DNA of 45,138 bases from Rhodospirillales bacterium (GTDB taxonomy: Bacteria > Pseudomonadota > Alphaproteobacteria > Bin95). Below the pieces are notes generated by a model that had not been told where the DNA came from, ran no database searches, and saw only the letters and a list, made by a program, of their open reading frames with translations. Location of the stretch: the NCBI GenBank assembly GCA_038143065.1, contig JAYQLI010000047.1, positions 1 to 45,138 on the forward strand. The letters run 5' to 3'. Shown piece after piece: positions 167 through 44,548 of the stretch (position 1 is the first letter of the stretch; every line of letters begins with the position of its first letter). A program made the translations under genes and the position numbers.

Positions 167-237
167 TTGCCAACCACTCATCACAAAAACGTTTATGAAG
201 TTCGGAGTGATTGCTACTGGTGTAGCCAGCTACACAA

Positions 238-1228: not shown

Positions 1229-1413
1229 CTACATCCTCCAAAACTAACTCTCACTGTTAGACACCAAAAACTACAAATCAATTAAAAATGAGCGTCGCGC
1301 TAACCCAGATAACCGCACAAATTGTCTTGGGGCTGGTTTTGAAATAACGGAAAGATAAAGAATAGGGCATAATTGAGTAGTTTTGATGCATCGCCTGACC
1401 TGATCAACGAGGT

Positions 1414-1429
1414 TTATTCTGACAGTGCC
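1414..1429. repeat. 16-bp direct repeat, copy 2; possible IS6-family IR remnant at the left edge of the high-GC block
   Basis: TTATTCTGACAGTGCC, reverse complement GGCACTGTCAGAATAA. It lies 15 bp from the tdh stop codon. Confidence 0.4.
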
Positions 1430-1444
1430 GGCTGATGTTTAGAG

Positions 1445-5109: not shown

Positions 5110-5142
5110 ATTTATAATTCCTACGCTATAGGGGCCCTGGCT

Positions 5143-6486: not shown

Positions 6487-6618
6487 ATTCTTCATCTCCG
6501 TAAGCACAATCTGAGATTTTCTTCGTTATCCCGTCGATGTCCCTTGTCTCTCACTCCAAGTAGCAACGCATGTTGGCACTGCTGTTATCCGCGGTAATCC
6601 CATTGCCCTTGTCTCTTG

Positions 6619-7617
6619 TCAGTGCGCGAGCAGCACCTTTTCTTCGCTAGGCGATATCCCGAAGTGCCTCTTGTATCTCTTTGAAAAAAGGAATGGCGTT
6701 GAGAACCCACACGCAATGGCAACGTCAATGATCCGCATTTGGGTATGTTGCAGCAACGCCTGCGCCTTTTCGAGCCTGAGTGTCGTCATGTAGGTGTTGG
6801 GGCTAACTCCCAGGTAGCGAGCAAACAATCGTTCGAGCTGTCGAGTAGATATACCAATCTGACTGGCGATTACCGAGGGTGAAACAGGCTCCTCAATGCA
6901 ATCTTGCATATAGGTTATCGCTTTTAATAACTTTTCGTTTCTTTGTTTCAGGCTGAGCGGGCTTGAATTGCTCTGTCGACAATCCCCATTACGCAGAGAC
7001 CCACAAAGCAGATGATCAGCGACCTTCTCCGAGGTGTCTGGGCCTGCCTTTTGACGGATCAACGCAGAAAAAAGATCCAAGGTGGCAGCGCCTCCGCCAC
7101 AGGAAACGATGTTCGCGTTCTCTTCAAAAATTGTGCAGGACGGTTCCAGATCCAAATATCCTTCATCAAAGGCGGGTTTCATGCGCCAGTGCGTGCTAAT
7201 GCGTCCTTCGGTGACGATGCCGATGCGGGCGAGAAAGAGGGGGCCGCCTCCCAAAGCACAAAGTCGGATGCCTTGTCGCGCGGCGCGCCGCAGCCAAGCC
7301 ACAGCCTTTCCAGATTTGCGGTAGTTTTGTGAATTGAAGGAGCAGCAAACGACGATGCAATCCCCTCGCTGGATATCCGGCAGCGGGCCATCTACGGCTA
7401 CGTTCAAGCCCGAAGAAGAGACGATGCTGTCGCCGGTTTCGCTAACGGTTTTCCAATGAAAGAAGGTCTTGCCCAGCGTGTCGTTCGCCGCAGACAACGA
7501 GTCTAACCCGGATCCCAGCTCCAACGCCGAAAATCCCGGCATCAAAAGAAAAACGAAACGGTTCACCGCGACCAGTTCGCTGACCGCTTCTTCGATGATT
7601 TTTTCTGGTCGCCCCAT
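6619..7617 (-). CDS. GlxA/GbdR-family AraC transcriptional regulator (GATase-like + AraC HTH)
   Basis: FLLMPGFSALE N-terminal domain and STHW. C-terminal ISTRQLERLF...LRLEKAQALL...VAIACGF. Confidence 0.92.
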   Translation of the reverse strand: MGRPEKIIEEAVSELVAVNRFVFLLMPGFSALELGSGLDSLSAANDTLGKTFFHWKTVSETGDSIVSSSGLNVAVDGPLPDIQRGDCIVVCCSFNSQNYRKSGKAVAWLRRAARQGIRLCALGGGPLFLARIGIVTEGRISTHWRMKPAFDEGYLDLEPSCTIFEENANIVSCGGGAATLDLFSALIRQKAGPDTSEKVADHLLCGSLRNGDCRQSNSSPLSLKQRNEKLLKAITYMQDCIEEPVSPSVIASQIGISTRQLERLFARYLGVSPNTYMTTLRLEKAQALLQHTQMRIIDVAIACGFSTPFLFSKRYKRHFGISPSEEKVLLAH

Positions 7618-7630
7618 GGCTCTCCTCCTA

Positions 7631-10083
7631 TTAAGAACGCATGTTCGCGCCGTTGGCGTCGTAGATTGGTCCTGCTAAAATCAGCGCGTTATAGAAGTCG
7701 CCTAAAATTTCTACCTCCAGCTTCGTTCCTGGCGTTGCGAATTCGGTTGCAACGTACCCCATCGCAATCGACTTGCCGACATGATGCGCATAGCCGCCTG
7801 AGCTGACATAGCCGACAGGTTCACCATCTTTTAGGATGGCCTCGTCATGGGCTACGTCGATCCCCTGGACGTCGATTGTCATTGTCACCAACTTCTGCGA
7901 AACACCTTCATCTCGGGCTTTCAGCGTAGCGTCTTTTCCGACAAAGTCCTTTTTCCAGTTGATGAAGACGTCCATGCCAGATTCGACTGCATCAAAGTCG
8001 GGGCGATATTCCATAGTCCAGACACCCCAGCCCTTCTCGAGCCGCATCGAAAGCAGGGCACGCGCGCCATACCAACGGTAGCCCAGATCGGCACCTGCCT
8101 CTTCGATTGCGTCAGCCAGGCGCATAAGATATTGTGGCTTACAATAGATTTCGTATCCCAATTCGCCAGAGAAGCTGATCCGGTTGATGATCGCCGGCAC
8201 GCCGCCAACAAAGGTCTGGCGCAGATCGCGGAACTTGAAGGCTTCGGCGGAAACATCGTCGCGCGTGATCCGGGCCAGCAGCTCTCGCGATTTTGGGACC
8301 GGACAAGGCGATGCCGTGCCAGTCGTCCGAAACATTGGCGTAGGAAACACCTACGGGCAGGTCTTTTTCGAACCAGCGGCGGTGTGCCTCCTGCATCGCA
8401 CCAGACCCAAACAGCATGAAATGATCCTCAGCTAGGCAAGCCACCGTCAGATCGCCGTAGAGTTTGCCCTTAGGCGTCAGCATCGGCGTCAGCGCCAAGC
8501 GCCCAGGCTTGGGAACAAAACCGGCAAGAATGTGGTTCAAGTATTGGCGAATGCCCTGACCTTTGAATTCGTGTTTAGCGAAGTTGGCGATCTCTATGCC
8601 ACCAACGGCTTCACGCACGGCCCTAATTTCCTCCGCGACATAGTTGTGAGAGCGGTTACGCTCAAAGGTCGGAACTTCATATGCATCTTCCGGTCCATCC
8701 GCAAACCAGAGCACGTGTTCAAGGCCAAAACCCTGATCCATCACGGCACCCTTGGCGATCATGCGATCATAGAGCGCGGTCGTCTTTTGCTTACGCCCCT
8801 TGGGAAGAGTTTCGTTCGGGAAGGTCATCACGAACCGGCGTTCGTAGTTTTCCGACGACTTGATTGTGCTCCAGTCAGGTGTCGCGAATTCACCAAAACG
8901 TGCCACGTCCATCGCCCAGACATCAATAGATGGTTCGCCGTCGATCATCCACTCCGCAAGGGTCAAGCCGACACCGCCGCCCTGGCAGAAGCCCGCCATG
9001 ACACCAACAGCCACCCAATAATTTTTCACACCCGGAACAGGACCAATTAGAGGATTGCCATCTGGACCAAAAGTGAATGGACCGTTGATCACATCCTTGA
9101 TCCCAGCATTAGCCATCGCCGGAAGACGTTCGAATGCGGTCTCCAGACGATCTGCAACACGATCCAGATCCGGCGGCAACAATTCATGACCGAAGTCCCA
9201 GGGCGTTCCGTCGATTTTCCAAGGGGTCGCTTTGAGCTTCATAAGTGCCGAGCAACATTCCTTTACCTTCCTGACGACAGTACACGTTGGCCTCAAAATC
9301 AATGCCGTGTGGCAGTTGCTGCCCAAAATTTGCGACTTCATCCATGTGCTCGGTGATCAAGTAATGGTGCTCCATTGGCTGAACAGGCAGGTGAATATCT
9401 GCCATATGGCCGACCTCGCGTGCCCAAAGACCACCGCAGTTCACAACGTGCTCCGCGTTGATCGTGCCTTTCGAGGTGACAATATCCCAGCTTCCGTCAG
9501 GGCGCTGCGTCATATCGGTGGCGCCACAATGGGTGAAATAATGAGCTCCATGCGCTCTGGCCGCCTTGGCAAACGCATAGGTCGTACCGGACGGGTCGAG
9601 ATGGCCGTCCTGTGCGTCCCACAAAACCGCGTGATAGTGGTCAGGATCGATCAAAGGATGACGCTCGGCCAGCTCCTTGGGCGAAATGAATTCTTGATCC
9701 AAACCCATGTAGCGCGCTTTTGATCGCTCACCTTTCAGGTAATCATACCATTCTTTCGTGGAGGCGGCATAAAAACCGCCGGTTTGGTGCAGACCCACAG
9801 ATTGCCCCGACAGCTCTTCGATTTCTTTATACAGATTGATCGTGTAGGATTGCAGACGCGAGATATTCGGATCCGAACTGATGGTATGGATGCCTCCGGC
9901 CGCATGCCAGGAAGACCCAGACGTCAGTTCGTCCCGTTCAAGCAATACCGCGTCTTTCCAGCCAAACTTGGCCAGATGGAACAGGATCGAACACCCAACA
10001 ACGCCGCCGCCAATGACAACGACTTTAGCGTGTGATGGCAGTTTCTTTGCGCCTGTGGTTTCGATTATCTGGATTGAGGGCAT
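7631..10083 (-). CDS. Dimethylglycine/sarcosine dehydrogenase-like FAD + GcvT-domain demethylase, split by two frameshifts (~9200, ~8290)
   Basis: VVIGGGVVGCSILFHL, LTSGSSWHAAG, NGPFTFGPDGNPLIGP, GcvT domain RISFSGELGYE and SMRLEKG. The three ORFs join to ~815 aa. Confidence 0.9.
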
Positions 10084-10138
10084 GTCTCGGTCTTTCTCAG
10101 GTTAAGGCTTGCACTGGCTACCCTTCAGGGCGGGCATC

Positions 10139-11698
10139 TCAAAAATCGGTGGCAGCGCCACCCTCGGCCTTGCGCTTAGTGACAAAGACATCAAGTTCTT
10201 CCCGTATGGCAGGGTCAAGGGCCGGGGCCTCATAGGCGGCAAGACGCTTTTTCCACTCAGTGTTTGCGCGTTCAATCGCAATTGGCGACCCGGCTTCCTG
10301 CCAGGTCTCGAAATTGCGCCAGTCGCTCAGGATCGGAGAATAAAAGGCATCACGATATCGCGTTTGCGTGTGGTCGGTACCAAAGAAGTGACCCGCTGGG
10401 CCCACCTCATTTATGGCTTCCAATGCCAAATCGTCTGGGCTGGTCGAAACGGGTTGAAGGAACTCAGAAACCATCTGAAGCAGGTCAATATCGAGTATGG
10501 CTTTTTCGTATGAACAGCACAGGCCCCCTTCGAGCCATCCGGCCCCGTGCATGAGCATATTGGCACCACCATTTATGGCGCCCCAAAGCGAGAAGACTGC
10601 CTCATATGCCGCTTGCGCATCCACCGTATTGGCTGCGCACACATTCGACGACCGATACGGTATGCCATAGCGCCGCGCCAGCTGCCCACCGATATGCTGA
10701 GCCTTCATGTATTCTGGTGTACCAAAGGCAGGCGCCCCGGTTTTCATGTCAACGTTGGAGGTGAAGCCGCCGTACATCACCGGTGCTCCCGGCCGTACCA
10801 TCTGAGACAAGGCAACACCGGCCAACGCCTCGGCATTTTGCAGCGTCACGGCCCCGGCTATCGTGATTGGCGCCATGGCCCCTGCCAGCGTGAACGGCGT
10901 GATCACAACGGGTTGACCCATCGCGGATAAGGCCATCACGCCCTGCATCATCGGAATATCGAGCTGCAGCGGAGAGTTCGTATTGATGATCGAGAACATG
11001 CAGGCCCGATCACGCATCTGATCATATGTCAAACCATGGGCAATCCGCGTCATCTCAATCGCATCGGCGACGCGTTCTTTCCCGAGAGAGTAGATGCAAT
11101 AGGCCTTGTCGGTCAGCGTTATGTAATCCTGAATGCAATCCAGATGGCGGATTGAGGCATGAATATCCACGGGCTCTACTGGATACCCGCCTGTGACGTG
11201 CAGGACGTTATGCATCTGGGCCAGTCTTAAGAAATTACGGTAGTCCTCTTGGTTGCCTGCGCGACGGCCCCGGTCAGTATCTGAGCAATTCGGTGCGCTT
11301 GCCATCATGTTGAATACGAGGTTGTCGCCGCCCATTGTGACGCTGTGCTGGGCGTTTCGTGCATGCAGCATGAATTCCGACGGCACAGTTGCAATGGTTT
11401 CGTTAATCAAATCGGGGTCGAAGCGCACACGCTCTTCACCGTCCCTCACATCGGCTCCCGCCTTTTTCATCACAGCGCGGGCTCCCTCATGCAGCACATC
11501 CAGGCCCGTCTCACACAGCAATTTAAGAGATGCCAAATGGATATGCTCGACCTGATCATCTGAAATCAGCGCAACAGGGGGATAGGGACGTTTCAGCTGC
11601 GCAAACGGTCGTTGCGTGATAGCGGGTGCCGGTGTTGCCCTTTCGCGGCGGCGCCCATGGCGTCCGCGTTCCTGGTGGGCCAGTTGTTCAATAGTCAT
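10139..11698 (-). CDS. Trimethylamine methyltransferase (MttB/MtgB superfamily), non-pyrrolysine
   Basis: IHLASLKLLCETG, INTNSPLQLD, TPFTLAGAMAPIT, VDMKTGAPAFGTPE, HGAGWLEGGL and VGPAGHFFG. No in-frame amber codon. Alternative start at 11725. Confidence 0.92.
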   Translation of the reverse strand: MTIEQLAHQERGRHGRRRERATPAPAITQRPFAQLKRPYPPVALISDDQVEHIHLASLKLLCETGLDVLHEGARAVMKKAGADVRDGEERVRFDPDLINETIATVPSEFMLHARNAQHSVTMGGDNLVFNMMASAPNCSDTDRGRRAGNQEDYRNFLRLAQMHNVLHVTGGYPVEPVDIHASIRHLDCIQDYITLTDKAYCIYSLGKERVADAIEMTRIAHGLTYDQMRDRACMFSIINTNSPLQLDIPMMQGVMALSAMGQPVVITPFTLAGAMAPITIAGAVTLQNAEALAGVALSQMVRPGAPVMYGGFTSNVDMKTGAPAFGTPEYMKAQHIGGQLARRYGIPYRSSNVCAANTVDAQAAYEAVFSLWGAINGGANMLMHGAGWLEGGLCCSYEKAILDIDLLQMVSEFLQPVSTSPDDLALEAINEVGPAGHFFGTDHTQTRYRDAFYSPILSDWRNFETWQEAGSPIAIERANTEWKKRLAAYEAPALDPAIREELDVFVTKRKAEGGAATDF

Positions 11699-11859
11699 TT
11701 GGGTGCGCTTTCTTAACCACGACATTTGGTCAGAAGCCTATGATGAAGTTTTGAGATTCAGGCAAATGAGTAATAGTAATAGCCATTCATTTTTGTAATG
11801 ACTTGTTCAATTTTTTAGGATTAAAACGCATATAAGCGATGTTATACAACGAGCGGGTC

Positions 11860-12734
11860 ATGACTTCTAAAAATTCTCCCAGCCTCACCTCGCTTAGAGC
11901 CTTTTCCGTTGTAGGAAACTGCCTGAGCATCACCAGTGCGGCTCAACAACTCGGAGTAACCCAAAGTGCGGTCAGCCGACAGATCAAGGCATTGGAAGAC
12001 GCGCTAGAATTCAAATTATTCAACCGCATCGGAAATAACATCAATCTGACGGCAGAAGGCCTGGCCTTTCACCAGAGGATCTTCACAATCTTCGGCCTTC
12101 TCGAGGATGCAACAAACGATGCAACCAATTCCTTCGCGCAGCAAAAAATAAACCTTTTGGCGCCTCCTACCTTAGCTGCCCGTTGGTTAACCCGGCGACT
12201 ACGAGACTATCCTCAAAAGTTCGCGGCCGTTGAACTGGCGGTCCACACAGAGCCATGGCCGAATATCCGAATGGATTGTGTAATCCAATTCGCCAGGTAC
12301 CCAAGCGCAGGTTCAAAGCATGTCCAATTGTTTCAGGAACAGCATGTCGCTGTCTGTTCGCGCGATCTTTTTGAAAATCGGCATGCCATGCGCACGAGCT
12401 CCCCGTTGCATATCTTTGACAAGGGAATCTCGTTTCCCCTTTGGAGTGACTGGCTGGCACACCAACCGAACTTTCCGGACCTGCCCACCGGACCTTTGAT
12501 GAAATTTTCTTCCCTCGAACTTGCAATTCAAGCGGCCAAGAATTCTGTCGGCGTCGCTATAGTCGATCGAAACATGATCGAATATGAATTGGAGGCAGGC
12601 AGCCTTGTCCAGATTTCGCCAATTACGGTTGCAGGACCCAGCGGATACTGGCTTGAAATCATCGCAAGAACAACAGGCCAAGGCAAGCTCCATCCAATTT
12701 TTCCGCTGGCTGAGAAGTGTTTCTGGCCCGACCC
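11860..12734 (+). CDS. LysR-family regulator (GcvA/TrpI-like), divergent from the mttB operon; 3' end joined to the next gene
   Basis: HTH PSLTSLRAFSVV...SITSAAQQLGVTQSAVSRQIKALEDAL. A LysR-type C-terminus (SSIQFFRWLRS) lies in the +1 frame after ~12669. Confidence 0.85.
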
Positions 12735-34126: not shown

Positions 34127-34543
34127 CTACCCCATCATTTTAAGCGCCGCTGCTTCACTTGCTCTGATAAAGTCCTGTGCGCGATACCGCCAATCTAGTT
34201 CGCCTAAGCGGAGTTCACTGTTGAGAGGTTCGTTGATATTGCGAGGGATTTTCACACCTGCAAAACCAAACACAGACATCTCCTCTGGCGTGAGATAACT
34301 GCGCACAAAAATCTCTTGGTTTCGGCTTTGCCAATACAGCGTGGAGAAGTTTCTAATGGTGCGATGCCGAGCAAGCTCAGCTGGCAGTGCTAATCTTAAA
34401 TCCCCTCCGTTTGTGTTTGTGTGGTGTGCGTGGATATCATTCCTCTTATTGAAGTGTTCAATCACTGTTTCAAAGAAGCCCTGTACCGCACGCGGGGCTG
34501 TGGCAATTTTTGCATAAAAGTTTTCTCGGCCGAGTTCGCCCAT
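34127..34543 (-). CDS. Hypothetical protein (138 aa)
   Basis: Intact ORF with RBS-like AGGTG. A diverged internal fragment is duplicated at 14572-14638. Confidence 0.65.
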   Translation of the reverse strand: MGELGRENFYAKIATAPRAVQGFFETVIEHFNKRNDIHAHHTNTNGGDLRLALPAELARHRTIRNFSTLYWQSRNQEIFVRSYLTPEEMSVFGFAGVKIPRNINEPLNSELRLGELDWRYRAQDFIRASEAAALKMMG

Positions 34544-34673
34544 ATGTCACCTAATTCGTATTTAACTATGCGTCTTTTGACATAGAGCAACTTAGAACAA
34601 ATTCACTTACAGGCGCCTAAAACTGCACAGTTTTGGCTGAGTTTGCGGCGTAATTCATTGCGGGTGTTGGATT

Positions 34674-35036
34674 TCAACTGCTACCCAGTGGTGCCTGCGC
34701 GCCCTGCGGCTTGAGCCTATCATAATCTGCCTGTGAGATTGCTGTGCTGATCGCTGAAGGCATTCCCGTTGTGGTGTCTTGTGTCTTTGGTGCGTTTGCA
34801 GATTTTGGAATGGAGAGCGCCGGTGGTTTTGATTGCCCCACAGTCTTTGTGGGTTTTGACTTACTCTTCGCTTTGGCGTCTTTGGTCTTAAGCCGCTTAT
34901 CCAGCGCGTTGGCGAGAAAGCTGGCTGTATTTGCGAAGAGTTTTATGTCGTCCACCGCCTGCTCAATACTGGTACTTTTTGCGCCCTTCTCAATAACATC
35001 AATGAGCTTTCGCATTTCTTCTCTAGCATCATCCAT
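34674..35036 (-). CDS. Hypothetical protein with a helical N-terminus and a K/P/S/T-rich tail
   Basis: RBS GAGG. It starts 12 bp after the upstream gene's stop. Confidence 0.65.
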   Translation of the reverse strand: MDDAREEMRKLIDVIEKGAKSTSIEQAVDDIKLFANTASFLANALDKRLKTKDAKAKSKSKPTKTVGQSKPPALSIPKSANAPKTQDTTTGMPSAISTAISQADYDRLKPQGAQAPLGSS

Positions 35037-35048
35037 ACTGTTTCTACC

Positions 35049-35375
35049 TCATGCACCCATGCGCTCTGGTTGCTTCCAGATTGCATGGGACTGTTTGGCG
35101 ATTGCGCTTTCACAGAGATCATTCAGGCGATCAAATGTAACAACCAACGTCTGGTGGGCTGTTTGGTCACTCGATCTCAACTGGTCTGCATAATACCCAA
35201 GTTTGTGGGCACACACACTCAGCACAGCAACACTTGGGTCTAGGTCATGATATCGCAGCGTTCTGATGTACCCCTCGCTGCGCCCAAGCCAGCCATTACA
35301 AAACTCGGGTGTTGAACTCACCACACCCGCCGCCTTCAGCTCGCTCTGTATATGTTCCAATAGTCTAATACTCAT
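35049..35375 (-). CDS. Hypothetical protein, probably DUF6626 family
   Basis: Strong RBS AGGAGAGGAG. The pattern EFCNGWLGRSEGYIRTLR is recalled as DUF6626; I have not searched it. Confidence 0.6.
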   Translation of the reverse strand: MSIRLLEHIQSELKAAGVVSSTPEFCNGWLGRSEGYIRTLRYHDLDPSVAVLSVCAHKLGYYADQLRSSDQTAHQTLVVTFDRLNDLCESAIAKQSHAIWKQPERMGA

Positions 35376-35396
35376 AGATCTCCTCTCCTTGCATGT

Positions 35397-35405
35397 GTAT
35401 TTATC
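35397..35405 (-). promoter_or_regulatory. GATAAATAC motif, T4-late-promoter-like, upstream of the DUF6626-like gene
   Basis: GATAAATACACATGCAAGG, ending 21 bp before the ATG. It aligns with GATAAATACATGTGAAGG at 38997. Confidence 0.35.
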
Positions 35406-35459
35406 TTTGGAACATAGGCTGGTGCCACAGTGGGTGGAGAGACTGTGTCTAGGACAGAG

Positions 35460-36244
35460 TCAGCGCTTATCTCTCAGTGGAAACTGCCCCTTGCCCACAT
35501 TCTCAATGTACTGCTCAGCAATGCGCAGGTGGCGCTGCACAGCCAATTGCTTTCTGCGATAAATCTTCTTTTCGATTTTTGTAGTTGAGAGGTTGAGGCT
35601 GCGTCGAGACTGAAGCGTTTCTCCATCCACAACGTGATTAATACGCAGCCCCACCAGATCAGCCAGCTCTGCGTCTTTGAAGTTTGGATGTCGCTGCTTA
35701 GCGTCCCATACCAGCAAATGCTCATGCAGGGCGGAGAGAATGGTTTGTAGCCACTGGGTATTTGGCACGGCTGGGCATCTTCTGGCGCGCTGCCTTTATA
35801 ATTTGAGGACGTACCAACGCTTGAACTGGCGCGTTGTGATCGCCAGTGATGTTTCAAGGGCACCTTTATGATCAGCGTGTGATCATCCCCCTGCTCTCCT
35901 GCTACAGCTGCGCTTACCTGCCTAATGGGTGGCTCTGCAAAAATCCAATTGTGCGCACGCCACCAATCCCAGAATTCACCGGCATACACATTGCCAAAGT
36001 CCTCATAGAGTTTGGCATAACGTCCACGCCCACCCTGCGCACAGGTACGTTTATAACCTTCATGGCGTCTGAGATACTCCCACCAATAGTAATAGACTGA
36101 ACATTGCCAGGGTTCTGCTTCGGGAAAAGGCGGTGGTGGCAGCTTTCTTTTGCTGCGTTTTGGGTCTTTCACAGGCCACGCATAAGCAAAATGCAGGGGA
36201 CGGTCTTTAAACTTTTCCATAAAATCAGTCTCTAATGATGCCAT
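35460..36244 (-). CDS. Hypothetical protein, possible FseA-like (DUF6499/DUF2285-type) activator; several single-base indels at 35730-35860
   Basis: YYWWEYLRRHEGY near the N-terminus. The repaired C-terminus reads LHEHLLVWDAK...DAELADLVGL...QRHLRIAEQYIENVGKGQFP. Confidence 0.5.
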
Positions 36245-36353
36245 ATATGTATTACTTTAATGCTTTTTCTATCGGCATCAATATTTCTCCTAAGTTTATC
36301 TCATCGACGCGGCAATCCCGCCGTACAGATCAAACTTTATTAGGAGAACACAC

Positions 36354-37169
36354 ATGACAAACCTAACACAAAACACAGCACCAACTTTGACATCCGTGAT
36401 TGATGAGATGATCGCAAATCGCATCAAATGGCAGGAAGGCACCTATGCTGCCAGCAATGCAGAGCTTTATGCACTTCTTGGAGATTGCTTAGAGCTGTTT
36501 AACAAAGCCAAAGACGCCAAAACTGGTTTGGCCAAAGCCATTACAGAGCAATTAGAAGAGCGTGGCATTGCCTATAACAGCTCAACAAGCCTAACTCTCA
36601 AGATTGTGCGCTTGGTCTTCTGTGCTCCAGGTATGGAAGAGAAGATCGTGCACCGTGCCTTCACCTATGCAAAGGTCCTAAAGATTGCCTCTGATGCAGG
36701 ACAAACTGGAGATACACTGTCCAAATATATCACAGACAATCATGGCATTGATGAGATCCGTCGCGCCAACAAAGACGGTCTGACAGAAGCACAAAAGTCA
36801 AAGCTGAACCAAGACTATGCAGAAACGGTTCTAAGTGACTCTGTATCCTTAGTTGATATTGATTTGGTAGATGCCCTGCAGCCCAATGACGGAGAGCAGT
36901 TCAGCCTAGCCCTGATCCGCCGCAATGCAGATGGAACTGGATCTATTGTATTCGGCACCCCCAATGTAGCTGCGATCAAGACTGTGCTTTGCCTAGCGGG
37001 TGGAGAACTCAAAGACGTGGCCAAGCAAGAAGATGAAGCCTCTGTAGCTGAGCGCAGTGAGCAAATGCGCGCGATCAATACGCAGCGCCTTTCACAAGAG
37101 CTGGCAGCCAAACAGGGCTTTGCACCCAGCATCACTGTCAGTGCCGTTGAAGCAGTCCCAGCTGAGTAA
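36354..37169 (+). CDS. Hypothetical protein (271 aa, largely helical)
   Basis: Long intact ORF with RBS TAGGAG. No motif recognised. Confidence 0.8.
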   Translation: MTNLTQNTAPTLTSVIDEMIANRIKWQEGTYAASNAELYALLGDCLELFNKAKDAKTGLAKAITEQLEERGIAYNSSTSLTLKIVRLVFCAPGMEEKIVHRAFTYAKVLKIASDAGQTGDTLSKYITDNHGIDEIRRANKDGLTEAQKSKLNQDYAETVLSDSVSLVDIDLVDALQPNDGEQFSLALIRRNADGTGSIVFGTPNVAAIKTVLCLAGGELKDVAKQEDEASVAERSEQMRAINTQRLSQELAAKQGFAPSITVSAVEAVPAE

Positions 37170-37189
37170 TCACAACATCCCATAACAGT

Positions 37190-37214
37190 GTGAGCAGCCC
37201 TATAGGCTGCTCAC
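37190..37214. other. Perfect 10-bp intergenic hairpin
   Basis: GTGAGCAGCC-CTATA-GGCTGCTCAC, with no U-tract. Confidence 0.7.
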
Positions 37215-37240
37215 CGTTAAACATTGAAAGGAACACACAG

Positions 37241-37931
37241 ATGAAGTTTGAGCACAAACATAGGCCGCACATGCTTGCAGGACATCATCTTCGCTGATGC
37301 GCATGTAGCCGGAGTTATTCAGGATACTGCTTCAGGCATACGTGATAATCACATCATTCTACATGGTCCCCGTGGCAGTGGAAAAAGCGAGACGGCTCGT
37401 TTGCTTCAACAGGCGAGACTGGGCTGCGAGGCGCAAGGCGTCTTTGCGGACCCCATCCATGCCAAGACCTACGAGCACGAGAGTTTTGCACCCATCCTCA
37501 CAACTTGGAACTGGCAGATCATGGCAGGGGCCCGAATGGGCTGCGTGGTGATTGATGAGGTCGACCAGTTCTCAACAGCCATGCAGCAAAAGCTGCGTGC
37601 TTTCGTGGATCGCTACAGCATGGGGCTTATTCTCTGCACCACAAACAATCTTCACGCTGTTGATCAGCCGCTTCAAGATCGCTGCCGCTGTCTAAAGATC
37701 ACTTACCCAACTATTGAGCAGTGGGCACCACGTGCACGGGCAATTCTTGCCAAGCAAGGTATTGAGCTCACTCAACAGCAGACCTGTGATCTTCTAGAAG
37801 GCTTTGAGAATTCGGGGCGCAAGATGATGGATTGGCTGGAAGATACAGTGATTGAGATCAGGCAAAACTGCACACGTTTACTTACAATCTTAGATCAGGA
37901 GCGAGAAAATGCAGTATCGTATAAACGCTGA
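37241..37931 (+). CDS. Clamp-loader-clade AAA+ ATPase (RFC small subunit / T4 gp44-like), lacking the collar domain
   Basis: ATG at 37241 after RBS AAAGGA gives MKFEHKHRP (EKYRP-like box II; one indel near 37268). Walker A GPRGSGKS, Walker B VVIDEVD, sensor-1 TTN and SRC-like LQDRC are present. Confidence 0.8.
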
Positions 37932-38421
37932 TGGCTTCTACTATTTACCAGGCACAGGACGCAATCTTGCTTTGATCTACTCATTTGAAAACATCAATGT
38001 CGCTACTGAGCAAATGGGAATTTTGCTTGAAGAAATTGGAGACAGCTTGTTTCAACTCACAGGCAGTAAGTTCTTTCGCGGCGCCAGTGCATTGGAAAAT
38101 GCGCTTAAGTTTAATTTTTCAAGTGCAATTAATCGATATCTTGCCGTAGATGAACGTTCTGATTTTGTTCAAAGTTTCAATCATATTGTTTGCTGTTCAG
38201 CTCTATACTGGAACTTGCAATGGTTAGACACTGACTTTGCAAACGAATTGCCGGCTTTAGATCGTGAAGACGAATTAGAACTCATTCGTGAATATTTTTA
38301 TCGAAGCCATGAAGCCGGTTACACATCCAACTTGGTCACAAATATTACGAAACATCAATTGACATATTTTGCTAGACCAGAACTCGAAGAAATCTACAGA
38401 AAGCAAAATTGCGAGGAATAA
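37909..38421 (+). CDS. Hypothetical protein (170 aa)
   Basis: RBS AGGAG; overlaps the ATPase 3' end; more AT-rich than its neighbours. Confidence 0.65.
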   Translation: MQYRINADGFYYLPGTGRNLALIYSFENINVATEQMGILLEEIGDSLFQLTGSKFFRGASALENALKFNFSSAINRYLAVDERSDFVQSFNHIVCCSALYWNLQWLDTDFANELPALDREDELELIREYFYRSHEAGYTSNLVTNITKHQLTYFARPELEEIYRKQNCEE

Positions 38422-38439
38422 AATCTAAAGAAGGAAACA

Positions 38440-38985
38440 TAAAACCGAATAAACTTCGTTTCTTCTGAAGCATCAGCTAACGCTTCGCTTGATGTCTTCG
38501 AATTGATTATTTCGAGATTGCAAAGAGCAGTCAGATCAACGCCTAGTGAGGCGTTGATCTCAACAGTTAAACATGAGTTTGCATGTCGCCTGTCAGGCTA
38601 TTTTACTGAACCAAATTGGAAGAGCAGGTTTTGCGATCATCTCTATTACCAGCGTTCACGCACGCATAGGACCCAAACAGCCAGGCACTCCTACACGCTA
38701 GCGGGTCTCTTGCGAGGTTGTCATCCGCTTCACTTTTTAGATGGCGTTCCATCTCAACCATTCCGACTTTGCAAACGTCATATCACTTCCGATGTTTCAG
38801 GATAAAAGGATGTCTCTCCAGTGGGATTGCGTTTAAGGCATCCTGCCAGCAGCAGGGTAGTGCAAAGAAGACGAACAACGGGCAGTTCGTTTTATGCTGA
38901 CGTTTTCAAAGTACATCACCACAGCGCAATTCCATTCGGCGCGCCAACCTTTATCCCATTTGTATAAGCCTAAGTCTTGCCTTCA
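38440..38985 (-). ncRNA. Candidate ~550-nt structured ncRNA and/or replication-origin region
   Basis: No credible ORF. There are at least 7 stems, including a 10-bp helix that pairs fully only on the minus strand via three G-U pairs (38662-38671/38689-38698), a CUC-GCAA-GAG GNRA loop (38707-38716), long-range pairing 38800-38809/38948-38956 and a perfect 12-bp stem at 38533-38560. Confidence 0.55.
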
Positions 38986-39299
38986 CATGTATTTATCAAT
39001 GTGCGCAAAAAGCTCGCAAAAATGGTTTTGATGCCGCCGGTTATTTGTTTTTTGGACGATCTGATCGCGATATAGGCAAAGGTTCTGTTCTTAGACTGAT
39101 CAAGTGGTTTTTGAACCAGATGTACCTGCCCTCTTTCAGAAAGAGTGACGAAGAGCTCTTTCAACATACTATTCGAACCACTTATGCCCACGTGATACAC
39201 AAACTTGGTTTTGGGAGCCGCCTTTTGAACATCTAAAACATATCGACCTAATTCGTCGTGCCGGGGGCGCTCTTTCGACCAGTCGATCATATCCAGCAT
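38970..39299 (-). CDS. Hypothetical small basic protein, phage-like
   Basis: RBS AAGGAG. The pattern FVYHVG...GQVHLVQK...FAYIAIR resembles small alphaproteobacterial phage proteins (recalled, not searched). Confidence 0.6.
   Translation of the reverse strand: MLDMIDWSKERPRHDELGRYVLDVQKAAPKTKFVYHVGISGSNSMLKELFVTLSERGQVHLVQKPLDQSKNRTFAYIAIRSSKKQITGGIKTIFASFLRTLINTCEGKT
38989..38997 (-). promoter_or_regulatory. GATAAATAC motif directly 5' of the candidate ncRNA
   Basis: Same extended motif as 35397-35405. Confidence 0.35.
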
Positions 39300-39446
39300 G
39301 TCATCAGCTCCTTAATCAATATCTTGAATCAACCAAGCCAATAAAACGTCTTCACGCGCAAAAGGAAAGTATCATAGTGAGATATTTTTCGGTCGTCCAA
39401 ACGAAGCCTCAGAAAGTAAACTGAAAGAAAGTTGTTTGGATAGGCT

Positions 39447-39920
39447 ATGGCATCTCTCAAAACCCTCACGTTTAAAACCATAGAGCGCAATCGGCGCGCG
39501 AGTGAGATTATAGCACGGCGCCAAAAGCTCATTGTGAAGCTAGAGGAGCAGCAGAAGGTTCTAGAACACCACGTGAAGAGTGAGCAGTATGTCGTGACCG
39601 GTCCAAAGTGGATGCGGAACAATCACGGTGAGCGTGTACTTGTTGAGAAGCAACGTGTTATTCGTCCTTGGTTCTTTGAGCGCGACGGTGGCTATTACCT
39701 GCAGGTTAAATATGGCACGCGCATCCTATCTGTTGATGGTGTGCACAATGCGATCTTTGTGGAAGCGATTTCAGATCTCAGCGGGAGTGCTTTCGAGCTG
39801 ATTGCAGCCACAGAGGCCGGTGAGTTGGATGCAGCTATCGCGAAAGCTTTGAAGCCTAAGCCGAAGTATAAGCCCGGGGCAGCGAAGTCTGCGGACATCC
39901 ATCGGCTTAAGCGGTCTTAG
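39447..39920 (+). CDS. Hypothetical protein, probably DUF6641 family
   Basis: The pattern RRQKLIVKLEEQ...W...GERVLV...RPWFF...VKYG...NAI is recalled as DUF6641; I have not searched it. Confidence 0.65.
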   Translation: MASLKTLTFKTIERNRRASEIIARRQKLIVKLEEQQKVLEHHVKSEQYVVTGPKWMRNNHGERVLVEKQRVIRPWFFERDGGYYLQVKYGTRILSVDGVHNAIFVEAISDLSGSAFELIAATEAGELDAAIAKALKPKPKYKPGAAKSADIHRLKRS

Positions 39921-39982
39921 GTCTTTAAACAAAAGTTTCACGATCCCATATACGTCACATCAATCACGGTGAGAGGTGAGTT

Positions 39983-40255
39983 ATGGAAGAGTTTAGAACA
40001 AGTGCGCGTGGACAGGTTTCGGTCAGGGGCGCGCTCATGCTGGTTTTTGGTCTTTTGCTTAATCTCGCAATAACCCTAGTAGGGGTGTTGGCCTTTATTC
40101 AATTCTTATGGATGCTAGTCACAACAGATCGGAACCAATTTATTGCTGACATCAGCTCTGATCTGTCTCGTTGGATGTCTGCAACTGTTCAATTCCTTCT
40201 TGGACAGAGCGAAGAAAAACCCTTCCCTTGGTCATCCCTCAAATATGCGCGCTAA
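39983..40255 (+). CDS. DUF4389-like small membrane protein
   Basis: Two hydrophobic helices, IQFLWMLVT..RN and terminal SEEKPFPW. RBS GAGGTG. Confidence 0.75.
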   Translation: MEEFRTSARGQVSVRGALMLVFGLLLNLAITLVGVLAFIQFLWMLVTTDRNQFIADISSDLSRWMSATVQFLLGQSEEKPFPWSSLKYAR

Positions 40256-40678
40256 GATTAAGGTCGCTGTTCTTTTATTGTTTGGGGTCTTTTGGCCGAT
40301 CACATTATTTGCCCAATCAGAATTAACTGGGCAGATAACCCATGTACGGGATGGCGATACAATCGAAGTTGGGGATATTGCGATTAGGCTCAACGGGCTT
40401 ACCTGCGACGAACGCGGCACAGCTTTAGGAGATCGCGCTACAGCGTACCTCCGATTACAAGTACCAGGTAAAACAGCAACCTGCACCTTAAATGGTGAGC
40501 TCACCTATGACCGCCTTGTTGGACGCTGCGCGACAGAGGACCTCGGTGATATTGGAGTGCATCTGATCAAGCAGCAGCTGTGTGGACGCTGCGAGAGATA
40601 TGATCCTGAAGGTGAGTATGCTCAAGCACAGAGAGATGCAGGACCCTATGCTGGGGCAATGCAGAGCATTGCAGATAG
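40245..40678 (+). CDS. Secreted thermonuclease (SNase/TNase family)
   Basis: Signal peptide, HVRDGDTIEV, IRLNGL..DE and TYDRLVGRC. It probably ends at TAG 40678 after one indel; the provided ORF runs on to 40847. Confidence 0.85.
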
Positions 40679-40701
40679 CGCACGGCTCAAAATTTTATAC
40701 T

Positions 40702-40926
40702 TTATTCAATTGAAAGATTATCAATCATCGGAACAAGACGCTCACGAACCCAGCTATAATCGGGCAACTCATCTATATATGCGACAATCTCATCAATTTG
40801 CTCACTTGATAAATCATCTAAAGAATCAACTTTGTAAAAATCCGTGATACTGTCACTGACCCAAGCTTCAACTTCATCAACAATACGATCTTCAAACTTG
40901 TTCCACTTATACAATTCAAAGGCCAT
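40702..40926 (-). CDS. Small acidic hypothetical protein (74 aa)
   Basis: RBS GGAG; very D/E-rich. Confidence 0.6.
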   Translation of the reverse strand: MAFELYKWNKFEDRIVDEVEAWVSDSITDFYKVDSLDDLSSEQIDEIVAYIDELPDYSWVRERLVPMIDNLSIE

Positions 40927-41014
40927 TTTAATTACTCCACGTTTAATTTCTGTTAATGCTCATGAAGCTAGATCTAACTAAGAGAAAGTCATTTTAATCG
41001 TACGTACTAAAATC

Positions 41015-41036
41015 TCATAGAACATACTTTCTATGA
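41015..41036. promoter_or_regulatory. Putative tyrosine-recombinase crossover site I
   Basis: TCATAGAA-CATACT-TTCTATGA: perfect 8-bp inverted arms with a 6-bp spacer, upstream of the small recombinase. Confidence 0.6.
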
Positions 41037-41124
41037 TGTTTTCGCGTATCCCACTGATATCATTGAAGATCATTTCGGGGCAGATTTCGGTCGTCCAACC
41101 AATACCTCAGACTTTATAATAAAA

Positions 41125-41147
41125 GCATAGAAAAGCTTATATTATGC
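41125..41147. promoter_or_regulatory. Putative tyrosine-recombinase site II (degenerate), next to the recombinase start
   Basis: GCATAGAA-AAGCTTA-TATTATGC shares the CATAGAA arm with site I. TATAAT lies at 41115-41120. Confidence 0.45.
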
Positions 41148-41159
41148 GAGGGTTCACTC

Positions 41160-41725
41160 ATGCGCCAAGCTCAAACACTGACAGATGCCCAACTGCGTCG
41201 TGTATTACACTATTGCCGTACTAGACGTCATCCACTGAGAGATGAGACAATCATACTCACAAGTTTTTATGCAGGCCGCCGCAATAGAAATCGCCGCCTT
41301 AAAATATGCAGATGTCTATGATGAGCAAGGCGCTGTACGAGATCAGTTCACACTGCGCGCAACACAAAGCAAAGGGGGCAGAACACGCACTGTATACATT
41401 GGAAGCAAACTGGAAGCGCGCCCTCAAAGAATACCAAGCCAGTATTGTTAGGCACAGAGAGGATATGCCACTCTTCCCCAGTCAAAAAGGTGGACACTTC
41501 TCAGCAAACACCATGTGCCAGCTGTTCCTCGATATCTACAAGGCCTGTGGTCTGAGAGATGCCTCCAGTCACTCAGGGCGGCGCACCTACATCACCAGGC
41601 TTGCCAACAAAGGAGTTGGTGTGCGGTTGTTGGCAGAGCTCGCAGGACATTCGCATATTTCGACCACCCAGAGATACATTGATGTGAATGTAGAGCAGTT
41701 GAAGGAAGCAGTGGAGCTACTCTAG
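41160..41725 (+). CDS. Small catalytic-domain-only tyrosine recombinase (~190 aa), two frameshifts
   Basis: MRQAQTLTDAQLRRV...FYAG(L)RAIEIAAL...SKGGRTRTV...SSHSGRRT...LAGHSHISTTQRY; the full R-K-H-R-H-Y set is present. Confidence 0.88.
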
Positions 41726-42953
41726 CAGCGAGCTTTCATATTCATCTTTACTGAGCTCATATCTCTTACCTGTCAGCATGTCTTTCTTCAGTCGTGGCGT
41801 AAGATGGCTGTAGTGACGCTCAATCATACCAATGGAAGTGCCCATCTGTATGGCGAGAGCATGTATATCCATACCGTCGTTCAGCAGTGCGAATGTCGCG
41901 TAGGTGTGGCGGAGGCTATAAAGCGTTCGATTAAGACCAGTACGTGGGCATTTGATCAGCCCACTTTCTTTCATAAACGCGCGGAAGGTTTGGTGGATGT
42001 TCTTGCTTACAGTCCCATCGGGCAATCTGAACACAGGTAAATCCACACGCTCTTTTAGGAGCTGCTCAAAGCTCATGTGATTGAGGTCTTCTGCACGCTC
42101 ATGGATGCGTTTGAGATAGTTGATCGTACCACTGCGGCAGATGATATCTCGCCTGCCCGTCTTACCAGATACACTCATCTCCAAATATTGAAGATCATTT
42201 TCTTCAAACAGTGTGATGTGTTTCCAATTGAGATTCAGTGCTTCTGTCCCATGCCGCATGCCTGTGTTGGCCAATATCAGCACATAGTCCCGCATGAGGT
42301 ACCGCATATCTGTGGGCTTGCCCGCCTTACCCTGCGTTGATCCAGTGCGGCAGTTTACGGATCATTGTGGCGTATTCTTCACGAGTGAAGTCTGACGGCG
42401 TTCGCTCTTCTCACCTTTGTTTACAAGCATTGGCACATTCTTGTGCCAGAAAGCCACGGGCCACTGCTTCATCAAACACACGGTTCATTGCAGAGTTATG
42501 TGTGTTCAGCGTACTTGCCTTTGGCTCACTGCCCATCTTTGCGCGCCGCCACTCATAGAAGCTTTGTACCTTCTCGTAATCAATGGAGGTCACGTACTGG
42601 GAGCCCAAAGAAGGGAATGAGGTAACGCTCAATACACACGATGTAATCAGCATAGACTTTCTTGCCCAATCCAGCATCCAGCTGTTTGCGCATGTCAGTA
42701 ATTGCAAGCCGCGCTACATCTGAGAACTTCTTGGTAATCACAGGAAGGTCATTCTTATTTCGGAACTTGTATTCTAGATAGGTGTCACGGGCCATTTCTT
42801 TGGCTTCATTGAGGTCTTTCTTACCAGTGCTGATGCGTATGGGCTTACCATCAATGCTGAATGCAGCCTGCCATCTTTTACTGCGTTCGCGACGATACAC
42901 ACGGGACCTTCGCCGTCCAAGATCATCACAGTATCATCTCGCAAGTGTCGCAC
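41717..42953 (-). CDS. Phage-type tyrosine integrase (~410 aa) with N-terminal arm-binding domain, several frameshifts
   Basis: VYRRERSKRWQA...RISTG, NTGMRHGTE, GKTGRR, YSLRHTY and QMGTSIGMIERHY. GTG start after AAGGAG. Confidence 0.9.
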
Positions 42954-42971
42954 GCCAATCTCCTTTAACAA

Positions 42972-43018
42972 ATTATATGGCTCTCAACACCGACAAGTCT
43001 ACCAAAGTGTGTTTTTGA
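42972..43018 (-). promoter_or_regulatory. Sigma70-like integrase promoter with an adjacent arm-type repeat
   Basis: TAGACT-N18-TATAAT on the minus strand. GTGTGTTTTTGA at 43007-43018 is identical to 44314-44325. Confidence 0.55.
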
Positions 43019-43111
43019 TTGTAGGAAAAATATTTGAAAATAGATCTCAATATCTTGTTGGTAATGTGAATTGGAGAAGCTCTATTCTACCCCTAATTCA
43101 ACACGTAAACC

Positions 43112-43806: not shown

Positions 43807-44230
43807 ACAAATCTCCGTAGTAATCGCTACTACATGAGACCATAAAAATATTCCTACCAGTCCTATCACTGTAAAAAATATTATTACTTTTTTCATCGGG
43901 GAGGATGGCTCATTGGAGTTAAACGCAAGTTCGATTGGCAAGCATAATAAATCCACCACCAATGAAAGAAACAATTGCTGATGCAATGACTGGCATTATG
44001 TAATTTTATGGATCCCAAAATCTCCACAAAAGCGACCAAAAAATGCGGAAATATGCACGATCCATCTAACAGCCAACTAAATTGTCATCGCTCATAAATA
44101 ATTCCTGAAATCCTTTAGGACATTAAGTAACGTGCATGTGCAAATTACACTTCAATATAAGCACCATAGGACTACACATGCATGACTGCAGAAATAATGT
44201 CTGAAAGCTGTTATAAAATGATTAAGAACC

Positions 44231-44379
44231 GTGTTCTTTCACTAGGTTGTAGACACGAGTGTCGAGACCCTGCAGGATCTCTCCCCTCAAACACACGAAA
44301 AAGTGTGTGTTTGGTGTGTTTTTGAATCCCACACGCATAGCGTTAGTGTGCAGAAATTAAGCCATTGATATTGTTTTGG
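44231..44379. promoter_or_regulatory. Element right-end region with arm-type repeats and an IHF site
   Basis: GTGTGTTT repeats and a hairpin at 44291-44325. TAAGCCATTGATA at 44358-44370 matches the IHF consensus YAANNNNTTGATW. Confidence 0.7.
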
Positions 44380-44396
44380 AAAGTGGTGCCCGGGGC
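44380..44396 (-). repeat. att core, copy 1 (duplicated tRNA 3' end, probably tRNA-Leu)
   Basis: AAAGTGGTGCCCGGGGC; the minus strand reads GCCCCGGGCACCA, ending in ACCA. IHF matches lie on both sides (44358-44370 and 44417-44429). Confidence 0.75.
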
Positions 44397-44548
44397 GCAA
44401 CCATACTTTTCGATAATATCAATCAATTATAGTATAGTTAGAAGTTGCTCGAAAATCTGGAAGTGGTCCACAAAGCATGGTCCCAAAATTGGTCCCAGAA
44501 CAAGACAATACTCCTGTTTTCTCGGGTTTTCATCGACGTATTGGCTGT

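Follow-up and report, generated by a model that had tools for sequence, protein, structure and literature searches.

The question raised by the locus described here is what, if anything, is encoded by roughly half a kilobase of apparently empty DNA within a small mobile element of an alphaproteobacterium. The window, that is, the whole stretch of 45,138 nucleotides under analysis, is contig JAYQLI010000047.1 of a Rhodospirillales assembly (GCA_038143065.1), and an earlier note, made from the sequence alone, had singled out positions 38440-38997 as a densely structured, strand-asymmetric region and a candidate for either a large noncoding RNA or an RNA-primed origin. Our analysis indicates that this locus is very probably the gene of a new family of large, highly folded noncoding RNA, which is encoded on the minus strand and constitutes a core module of a family of small integrative elements found in aquatic Proteobacteria. 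The conserved core of the RNA comprises ~470 nt (38500-38965, minus strand), and the predicted transcript, including a 5' leader and a 3' tail, would be ~550 nt in length and extend roughly from 38985 to 38442. At least 14 helices are observed, including a pseudoknot formed by the 5' end and a hairpin loop, together with a conserved loop of 16 nt. No description of this RNA was found in the literature searched, and one may exist outside that literature.

Initial inspection agrees with the proposal that the region is noncoding and belongs to no known RNA family. Between the stop codon of the neighboring p170 gene (37909-38421, plus strand) and position ~39000 there is no credible reading frame, as all six frames are broken, and the lone 100-amino acid open reading frame (38503-38805, plus strand) displays 50% protein identity to a second copy of the locus against a DNA identity of 75%. 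Searches with Rfam 15 returned no match at gathering thresholds in the whole window and none at E <= 10 within 38000-39500; among 10 homologous loci the sole Rfam match was a tRNA in locus L037, and a separate comparison of the RNA of locus L010 with Rfam produced four chance-level matches (E 0.4-4.5), all far under gathering. The structural elements listed in the earlier note are all present on the minus strand where it had placed them. Its description of the region as densely structured is not, in contrast, borne out by folding energy: the minus strand folds at -164.2 kcal/mol, a z-score of -1.69, with 7 of 100 dinucleotide shuffles equally good, and the plus strand scores slightly better against its own shuffles (z -2.75). 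Folding of this kind, no better than that of shuffles, is one of the outcomes that the note had listed as refuting. The case for structure is carried by comparative evidence, and thermodynamics alone would have failed it.

The comparative evidence began with the second copy, located on contig C8 of the same assembly (11187-11621) and 75% identical to the window copy; the RNAalifold consensus of the two contains 112 pairs, among which 10 show compensatory change and no pair is broken. Further homologs were collected by scans seeded with a single 18-mer, GATGATCGCAAAACCTGC, taken from the longest identical block (38624-38641), such that every homolog carries the 18-mer by construction. In contigs representing one genome per species the 18-mer occurs at 64 loci, of which 16 contain the whole RNA as judged by nhmmer while the other 48 are chance matches, and in metagenome contigs it occurs at 119 or more. 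Across everything fetched, at least 95 loci carry a homolog at E <= 1e-10, at least 81 are full length, and at least 50 are non-redundant. By record title, the carrier genomes belong to the Rhodobacteraceae/Paracoccaceae, to other Alphaproteobacteria and, in one case, to Limnohabitans. BLAST comparison of the locus with plasmids and phages gave no match, a scan of viral contigs with two conserved blocks gave none, and 60 relatives of the assembly yielded just one weak match of 32 nt. A model of the 5' domain, which lacks the 18-mer, found the RNA in 0 of the 36 other genomes of the host family (37 genomes in three genera) and in 2 of 151 genomes of a related family.

Support for a conserved secondary structure is provided by alignments of three domains, which were produced with MAFFT without being fitted to any structure and in which the proposed pairs were then counted. 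Across 69 counted base pairs in 14 helices, 85-91% of cells are paired as compared with 33-56% when the partners are slid, and 54 of the 69 pairs have changed on both sides, so that the covariation check on homologs returned compensatory change throughout most of the fold. For each domain the observed percentage paired, covariation score and number of cells changed on both sides were reached by none of 500 shuffles. The same counts identify the folded strand: G·U combinations occupy 310 cells and A·C combinations 90, and pairing stands at 88.3% versus 81.4% on the opposite strand. The excess of G·U over A·C indicates that it is the minus strand of the window that folds, as had been proposed. 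Together with a conserved promoter-like motif, described below, covariation and strand asymmetry strongly support the earlier claim of a large structured RNA on that strand.

The 5' domain (38866-38965, minus strand; alignment A5, 49 sequences) consists of the pseudoknot PK1 and helices P2, P3 and P4. In this alignment 90.7% of cells are paired, versus 33-56% when slid, and 19 of 22 pairs show changes on both sides; the covariance model R1 matches the 38866-38965 stretch at 84 bits. PK1 joins a 5' AACGAG segment, which reads AAUGGG at 38960-38955 of the window, to the loop of the P4 hairpin, and covariation is observed in six of its six pairs, as it is in five of the five pairs of P4 (ACGAAC/GUUCGU, 38871-38890; 97.9% paired). 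The central domain (38728-38873, minus strand; alignment A9, 42 sequences) contains P5 (38862-38867 with 38767-38772), P6, P7 (38830-38834 with 38773-38777), a variable insertion termed P8, and P9. Within A9, P5, P7 and P9 are 85.2% paired compared with 34-43% when slid, with changes on both sides in 13 of 17 pairs. The closing stem of P6 (CCUGC/GCAGG, 38842-38856) reaches at least 5 bp in 29 of 40 representatives, with 26 distinct sequences, when assessed by script, and P9 (AGAUGG-AACG-CCAUCU, 38739-38754) covaries in all six pairs and is 67.9% paired on the MAFFT alignment. A 15-nt complementarity of 93% between 38766-38780 and 38898-38912 links the P3 loop to the P5/P7 strand; it is specific to the subgroup to which the window belongs, whose P3 loop departs from the family consensus CUGAUGUGA, and may reflect a tertiary contact or a pairing that competes with the main fold.

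The 3' core (38584-38737, minus strand; alignment A8, 49 sequences) includes a conserved AAGUGA and helices P10 to P15. Pairing of the outer and inner P10 and of P11-P15 amounts to 88.0%, versus 35-47% when slid; 22 of 30 pairs have changed on both sides, and the cells so changed number 318 against 105 +/- 9 in shuffles. The outer P10 (AGCGG/CCGCU, 38700-38729) is 99.6% paired and covaries in four of five pairs, while its inner portion, CUC-GCAA-GAG, is confined to part of the family and is 73% paired on the MAFFT alignment. P11 (GCGUGUAGGA/UCCUAUGCGU, 38662-38698) has changed on both sides in nine of nine pairs, P12 never covaries, and P14 closes the 16-nt loop AUGAUCGCAAAACCUG, which lies within the seeding 18-mer (38624-38641) and whose invariance is therefore partly by construction. 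GNRA caps are found on the inner P10 in 11 of 49 sequences (GCAA in 10, GUAA in one) and on P15 in five of 49. At the 3' end of the conserved core, the perfect 12-bp hairpin reported earlier (38533-38560, minus strand) proves to be a family feature, as 47 of 50 representatives carry a hairpin of at least 8 bp at this position, built from 36 distinct arm sequences (mean of the shuffles, 6.3 bp). The long-range helix GGAUAAAGG/CCUUUUAUCC, by contrast, is not family-wide: inspection by eye indicates that it is possible only in the subgroup bearing the insertion.

Two variant copies of the RNA were also observed. At locus L193 (G138:C1:128-325) a shortened copy of ~200 nt, in which the P4 region is joined to the loop domain, lies upstream of an intact small recombinase gene; it is either a mini-version that occurs naturally or what a deletion has left behind. 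At locus L060 (1001-1535), on a contig binned, probably wrongly, to a flavobacterial metagenome-assembled genome, the RNA is a mosaic that matches the window at 96% identity over its first 165 nt while the remainder belongs to another clade, which at the sequence level indicates recombination inside the RNA gene.

Upstream of the RNA, a promoter-like element is present on the minus strand (38991-39019), consisting of TTGCGA (39019-39014), a 17-nt spacer and ATAAAT (38996-38991). It belongs to a conserved motif, TTGATAAATA, which is found with no more than two mismatches in 31 of 50 representatives, and an exact ATAAATA precedes the RNA in 39 of 50. The arrangement suggests promoter activity; a sigma-70 promoter scan of 38300-39500 did not list this site, and both sites that it listed were on the minus strand and none on the plus, no search dedicated to an antisense RNA having been made. 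At the other end, homology between copies stops near 38500-38473, and the contigs of other variants diverge exactly below 38473. The 3' tail of the window copy (38440-38505, minus strand) comprises a longer hairpin tipped by GCGAAGC (38482-38488), followed by AAAC-GAA-GUUU / CGAA-GUUUA-UUCG and a U-rich run; the U-rich end resembles a terminator that would be weak and bidirectional.

The GCGAAGC heptamer merits particular attention. Within 260 nt past the core, 19 of 45 representatives have an exact GCGAAGC on the sense strand and 0 of 45 have one on the antisense strand, where ~0.7 would be expected; it occurs at the same relative place, and several loci carry it at the tip of a stem of 5-9 bp. 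The emphasis that the earlier note had placed upon this motif is thus upheld for the tails, but not for the window at large, across which its frequency is at chance (6 found versus 7.6 expected). Among triloops of tail hairpins of at least 4 bp, GAA is the commonest (17 of 233; TTC accounts for four). Folded as DNA, the minus strand of the window tail has a z-score of -3.66, a value reached by 0 of 200 shuffles; folded as RNA, z is -1.87. According to a 2026 review, DNA mini-hairpins of the type GCGNAGC/GCGNNAGC are located at priming sites of phages G4, St-1 and alpha3, are often found where replication initiates on single-stranded phage DNA, occur also in RSF1010 ssiA and N4 promoters, and are much more stable than their RNA versions (PMC13037366). 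The heptamer is likewise part of the predicted transcript, which leaves room for a role as RNA.

The RNA resides in an integrative element of ~8.5 kb (34539-43019), whose contents are p120, DUF6626, p256, p271, an AAA+ ATPase, p170, the RNA, DUF6641, DUF4389, p234, a small recombinase and a full-length integrase. The same element is found at G061:C8:43091-51419 with 90-95% identity and other flanks, while positions 200-12732 of the window are 96% identical to a contig of a genome titled Rhodobacteraceae bacterium HIMB11 (L067). That chromosomes so nearly identical should carry the element on another contig with different flanks delimits a mobile element of ~8.5 kb. Contig C8 of the window's own assembly has five of the element's segments. 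Neither direct nor inverted repeats of more than 11 nt were found at the ends of the element, and no tRNA gene was found in the window. In the copy of the element at locus L037, a tRNA gene (6467-6540) adjoins the full-length integrase, an arrangement that fits integration at a tRNA gene.

When neighboring genes were clustered over 96 loci, the families observed were DUF6641 (40 loci), the small tyrosine recombinase (36), the AAA+ ATPase (27), DUF3768 (25), DUF6626 (22), p271 (21), a DUF6626-like family (16), p256 (16) and the full-length integrase (15). Of the 25 loci flanked by 2 kb or more on each side, 17 have DUF6641 and 13 have the small recombinase; for the 12 flanked by 3.5 kb or more, the respective counts are 10 and six. 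The AAA+ ATPase beside the RNA shows similarity to clamp loaders and replication factor C. For p271 and p256 there was no match in Pfam, NCBIfam, PHROG, PDB sequences or fold searches, p271 falling only into unnamed clusters of the protein atlas and having no fold match at E <= 0.001; weak top rows from the fold searches of DUF6641 and p271 (YkuJ, SRP14, Bcl-xL) were set aside. The neighboring DUF3768 and DUF6876 genes are small and have no assigned function, PADLOC reported nothing among the neighbors beyond one weak AAA match, and the literature searched held no paper on DUF6626, DUF6641 or DUF3768.

The small tyrosine recombinase, hereafter INTs, is encoded on the plus strand at 41160-41725, with a start at ~41162, and in the window is split into 41160-41321 and 41306-41725. 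It is a member of the Pfam family Phage_integrase: intact homologs are 188 amino acids in length and match positions 2-171 of 172 at E 2.6e-28. Across 21 sequences the catalytic residues (R, K, H-x-x-R, H and Y) do not vary, and the N-terminal core-binding domain is absent, as INTs aligns to residues 103-273 of a XerC-like protein of 292 amino acids, 109-287 of XerD and 138-337 of Cre. In most loci having INTs, a distance of 200-250 nt separates its start from the RNA; in 31 matches the gene diverges from the RNA 5' end and in seven it lies downstream on the same strand, with the orientation following clade. Just upstream of INTs in the window is a 34-bp palindrome of 14-6-14 architecture (41009-41042) with the core TCATAGAA-N6-TTCTATGA at 41015-41036; the pattern has one match versus 0.22 expected, and similar palindromes flank the small recombinase in 25 loci. 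Cargo of 0.6-2.1 kb between recombinase and RNA begins exactly at the palindrome, which, to judge from its sequence and placement, may be a recombination site or an operator. An invertible switch was considered, given that in some clades the RNA is inverted relative to the recombinase, and rejected on the grounds that each locus has one palindrome, no strand-changing joint was listed among the contigs compared with the window, and orientation tracks clade.

The commonest neighbor of the RNA is the DUF6641 gene (39447-39920, plus strand; Pfam PF20346), for which the AlphaFold model has a pLDDT of 84.6 and a fold search gave no PDB match at E <= 0.001. A motif, TTTCGGTCGYCCAA...CCTCAGA, is common to the regions upstream of DUF6641 (39371-39446) and INTs (41090-41130), and a GGTYGY-N17-A/T-rich pattern is found upstream in distant loci; the motif probably represents a promoter or operator that these genes share. 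On the strand of the RNA, its sequence resembles the RNA 5' segment AAGGUUGGCNCGCCGA. Antisense control of the recombinase and DUF6641 mRNAs was nevertheless rejected, as the motif is promoter-like (a -35-like GGTYGY, a 17-nt spacer and an A/T-rich box) and shows by eye no visible co-variation with the RNA. The conserved loop of the RNA also shares CAAAACCU (up to 9 nt) with the outer arm of the palindrome in most loci (L163, L166, L037 and others); this match is absent in the window itself, and an 8-nt match approximates chance for any one locus. Among the 151 genomes of the related family, relatives of INTs occur in eight, only the three best-scoring of which have the RNA or a remnant of it, and DUF6641 occurs in four and is missing from the RNA-positive G156. 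These reciprocal searches indicate that no protein is an obligate one-to-one partner of the RNA.

What function might such an RNA fulfill? The reading that we rank first, and which we hold tentatively, is that the promoter, the RNA and the downstream strand-specific GCGAAGC together make up the replication-initiation module of the element. Transcription of the folded RNA would open the DNA or leave an RNA-DNA hybrid; the displaced, RNA-like strand would then extrude the DNA mini-hairpin as a single-strand priming signal; and the adjacent AAA+ protein (clamp-loader/DnaC-like) and p271 would supply loading functions, with loading following excision of the element by its integrases. This reading is placed first because it is the sole one to make use of the strand-specific GCGAAGC, and it also fits the AAA+ gene. 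The R-loop primer or RNA-primed origin suggested in the earlier note, which the recurrence of this mini-hairpin just past the RNA likewise favors, is possible to a similar degree. A number of observations weigh against it, or against the RNA family upon which it depends. The element has no recognisable gene for a replication initiator, primase or helicase; a fold with many helices, a pseudoknot and a conserved 16-nt loop far exceeds the needs of known pre-primers; 26 of 45 tails are without GCGAAGC; and the AAA+/p271 pair is missing within 3.5 kb in seven of 12 well-flanked RNA loci. As for the RNA itself, folding of the single minus-strand sequence is no better than that of shuffles, the recovery of all homologs through one 18-mer biases both the breadth of the family and the invariance of the loop, and the 5'-domain model gave one further genome among 150 others sampled from the related family. 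Finally, contigs from RNA libraries span other genes of the element and overrun both ends of the RNA, and so demonstrate neither a discrete transcript nor its level.

Ranked close behind, and likewise only possible, is a partnership with protein, in which the RNA would be a subunit or cofactor of INTs or DUF6641 and would control or assist recombination at the palindrome (excision, inversion or cargo capture), or would regulate the element in trans. The proximity of INTs, ~200-250 nt from the RNA in both arrangements (31 divergent, seven same-strand), is consistent with such a partnership, as are the retention by INTs of all catalytic residues in the absence of the N-terminal DNA-binding domain of Xer and Cre, the 14-6-14 palindrome alongside it at which cargo begins, the presence of DUF6641 within 3.5 kb in 10 of 12 well-flanked loci, the upstream motif common to the DUF6641 and recombinase genes, and the CAAAACCU match between RNA loop and palindrome arm. 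Set against these are the distributions in the related family, where INTs relatives are found in eight of 151 genomes with the RNA or a remnant in only the three closest and DUF6641 in four genomes that do not include RNA-positive G156; the six of 12 well-flanked RNA loci without INTs within 3.5 kb; the chance-level frequency of the 8-nt loop match per locus and its absence from the window; and the lack of a recognisable RNA-binding fold in DUF6641. The boldest form of the idea, that a recombinase reduced to its catalytic domain captures or moves cargo at the palindrome with the RNA as the DNA-recognition or synapsis subunit that it lacks, appears improbable. The literature searched held nothing relevant on RNA-guided tyrosine recombinases, and, if true, an RNA-assisted tyrosine recombinase would represent a second class of RNA-dependent recombinase, unrelated to IS110.

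The remaining explanations dispense with a protein partner, with the RNA or with its independence. A self-contained ornate RNA, such as a ribozyme, a self-assembling particle or a decoy against host defence, carried as cargo that benefits the element, is rather unlikely: RNAs of this class, which are known from phages and plasmids, typically have such a size, a pseudoknot, multi-way junctions, GNRA caps and a long conserved loop, three of them (GOLLD, ROOL and OLE) are reported to form RNA-only assemblies (PMC12286853), and DUF3768 and DUF6876 are among the neighbors, but no similarity to any such family is found, there is no candidate for a substrate, a cleavage site or a multimer interface, and the tight placement beside a recombinase is left unexplained. 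That the fold acts solely as single-stranded DNA, as a single-strand origin, an initiation signal or a transfer structure, and that no RNA matters, is improbable as well. The strand-specific GCGAAGC is a DNA-type motif, folded DNA tolerates G·T wobbles, and the strand asymmetry would appear identical; the promoter-like motif at a fixed upstream place, the pseudoknot and GNRA tetraloop interchange as hallmarks of RNA, and the presence of the sequence in RNA libraries all argue the other way, and no relaxase or rolling-circle Rep gene was recognised. Least credible by far is that the locus acts in cis as the leader or riboswitch of a gene downstream, or that it is a protein-coding gene in decay. 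A DUF6626-like gene does lie ~110 nt downstream on the same strand in 15-16 loci, and frameshifts interrupt many of the element's genes in one of the two copies; yet the next gene converges on the RNA in the window (p170) and in 25 loci (DUF3768), all six frames are broken, and substitutions track base pairs and not codons, as reflected in the low protein identity of the antisense frame relative to its DNA. The arrangement of genes already contradicts this explanation; as the RNA has its own promoter-like motif and lies in either orientation to its neighbors, it very probably acts as a free-standing RNA and not as the leader of one gene.

The new RNA resembles several known systems in part. 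It shares with GOLLD, ROOL, OLE, HEARO and raiA a length of several hundred nucleotides, many covarying helices, complexity at the level of a pseudoknot and the absence of coding capacity, and with ornate noncoding RNAs in general its carriage on mobile DNA, its recovery mostly from environmental sequence and a function unassigned at discovery. Unlike them, it matches no Rfam 15 family in sequence or in structure, its hosts, by record title, are aquatic Alpha- and Betaproteobacteria, and it adjoins a small tyrosine recombinase in place of phage tRNA genes or an IscB-type nuclease. The mini-hairpins of G4, St-1, alpha3, RSF1010 ssiA and N4 (PMC13037366) resemble those found here in the exact GCGAAGC, often on a stem of 5-9 bp, on one strand and at a fixed place; here, unlike at the phage sites, the motif occurs in only 19 of 45 loci and a priming role is predicted.

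With regard to replication, the closest parallels are the origins of the ColE1 RNA II and pAMbeta1 types. As in these systems, the RNA described here would be a folded transcript, of ~550 nt, with its own promoter (putative in the present case), and, as with the primosome assembly site of the ColE1 type, a hairpin that is a candidate priming signal lies downstream on the displaced, RNA-like strand. In contrast to ColE1 RNA II, no antisense RNA I, RNase H site or Pol I site was identified for the new RNA, with no search dedicated to an antisense transcript; its fold is far more complex and more conserved, and its host element is integrative and has no recognised Rep. With regard to recombination, the bridge (seek) RNAs of IS110/IS1111 are likewise structured noncoding RNAs directly beside a recombinase gene in a mobile element. 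In the present case the neighbor is a tyrosine recombinase and not a DEDD enzyme, the RNA is ~3 times longer, and no programmable pair of loops for target and donor was found, only the 8-nt identity with the palindrome arm that is absent in the window. The integron platform also combines a Xer-like tyrosine recombinase with a site-like palindrome at which variable cargo begins, and the small invertases FimB and FimE are similar in size to INTs (~190 amino acids). INTs has no IntI-specific insertion and its element no attC-like sites, integron-integrase models scoring 22 and 17 bits against cutoffs of 265 and 435, and, unlike in the invertase systems, a single palindrome per locus leaves no invertible segment evident. 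To our knowledge, neither the integron platform nor the FimB/FimE systems work with an RNA partner.

RNAs of this size and intricacy are rare in bacteria, and every new class to date has been a pointer to new biochemistry. The RNA presented here has strong comparative support, at least 95 copies in public data and, going by the record title of L067, a cultured carrier lineage; it merits an Rfam family, which would take ~0.5 kb of 'empty' DNA off the annotations of these elements. Its sharply defined setting, consisting of a small element, a catalytic-only recombinase, a loxP-sized palindrome at the cargo and a DNA-type mini-hairpin, makes its function directly testable. Were either of the two leading readings true, the outcome would be a tyrosine recombinase that works with an RNA or, for an excised island, a means of starting replication that depends on RNA.

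Sequence from the locus is also present in public RNA libraries. Among the runs returned, 20 rows, drawn from 10 studies, contain at least some of the stretch; in 15 of these, half or more of its sampled words are present, and nine of the 20 are registered as RNA. Three studies contribute RNA-library contigs, which span 38473-39111, 38473-38894 and 38579-38988 and carry neither strand nor end information. Library depth was considered for ranking the RNA relative to its neighbors and not used as evidence, coverage being low across 38010-38411 and one run being uncovered left of 38412.

Several further observations concern the element and its contig. The genes for p256, p271, the small recombinase and the full-length integrase (35474-36244, 41160-41725, 41717-42900 and their C8 counterparts) are intact in one copy and split in the other, and the overlapping split frames reflect either decay or indel errors of assembly. 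The DUF4389 and p234 cargo that separates recombinase and RNA in the window (39814-40662) is 87% identical to G061:C1:383520-384368, on another contig of the HIMB11-titled genome, and on this sequence evidence appears to move independently of the element. The assembly is 5.5% contaminated and the other 36 genomes of its own family are all without the RNA; contig C47, on which the window lies, and probably C8 too, may come from a second organism in the assembly. Lastly, short repeats at 44224-44490 and 167-230 recur at eight and five places, respectively, in a related genome, on many contigs and with 77-92% identity, and form a dispersed family.

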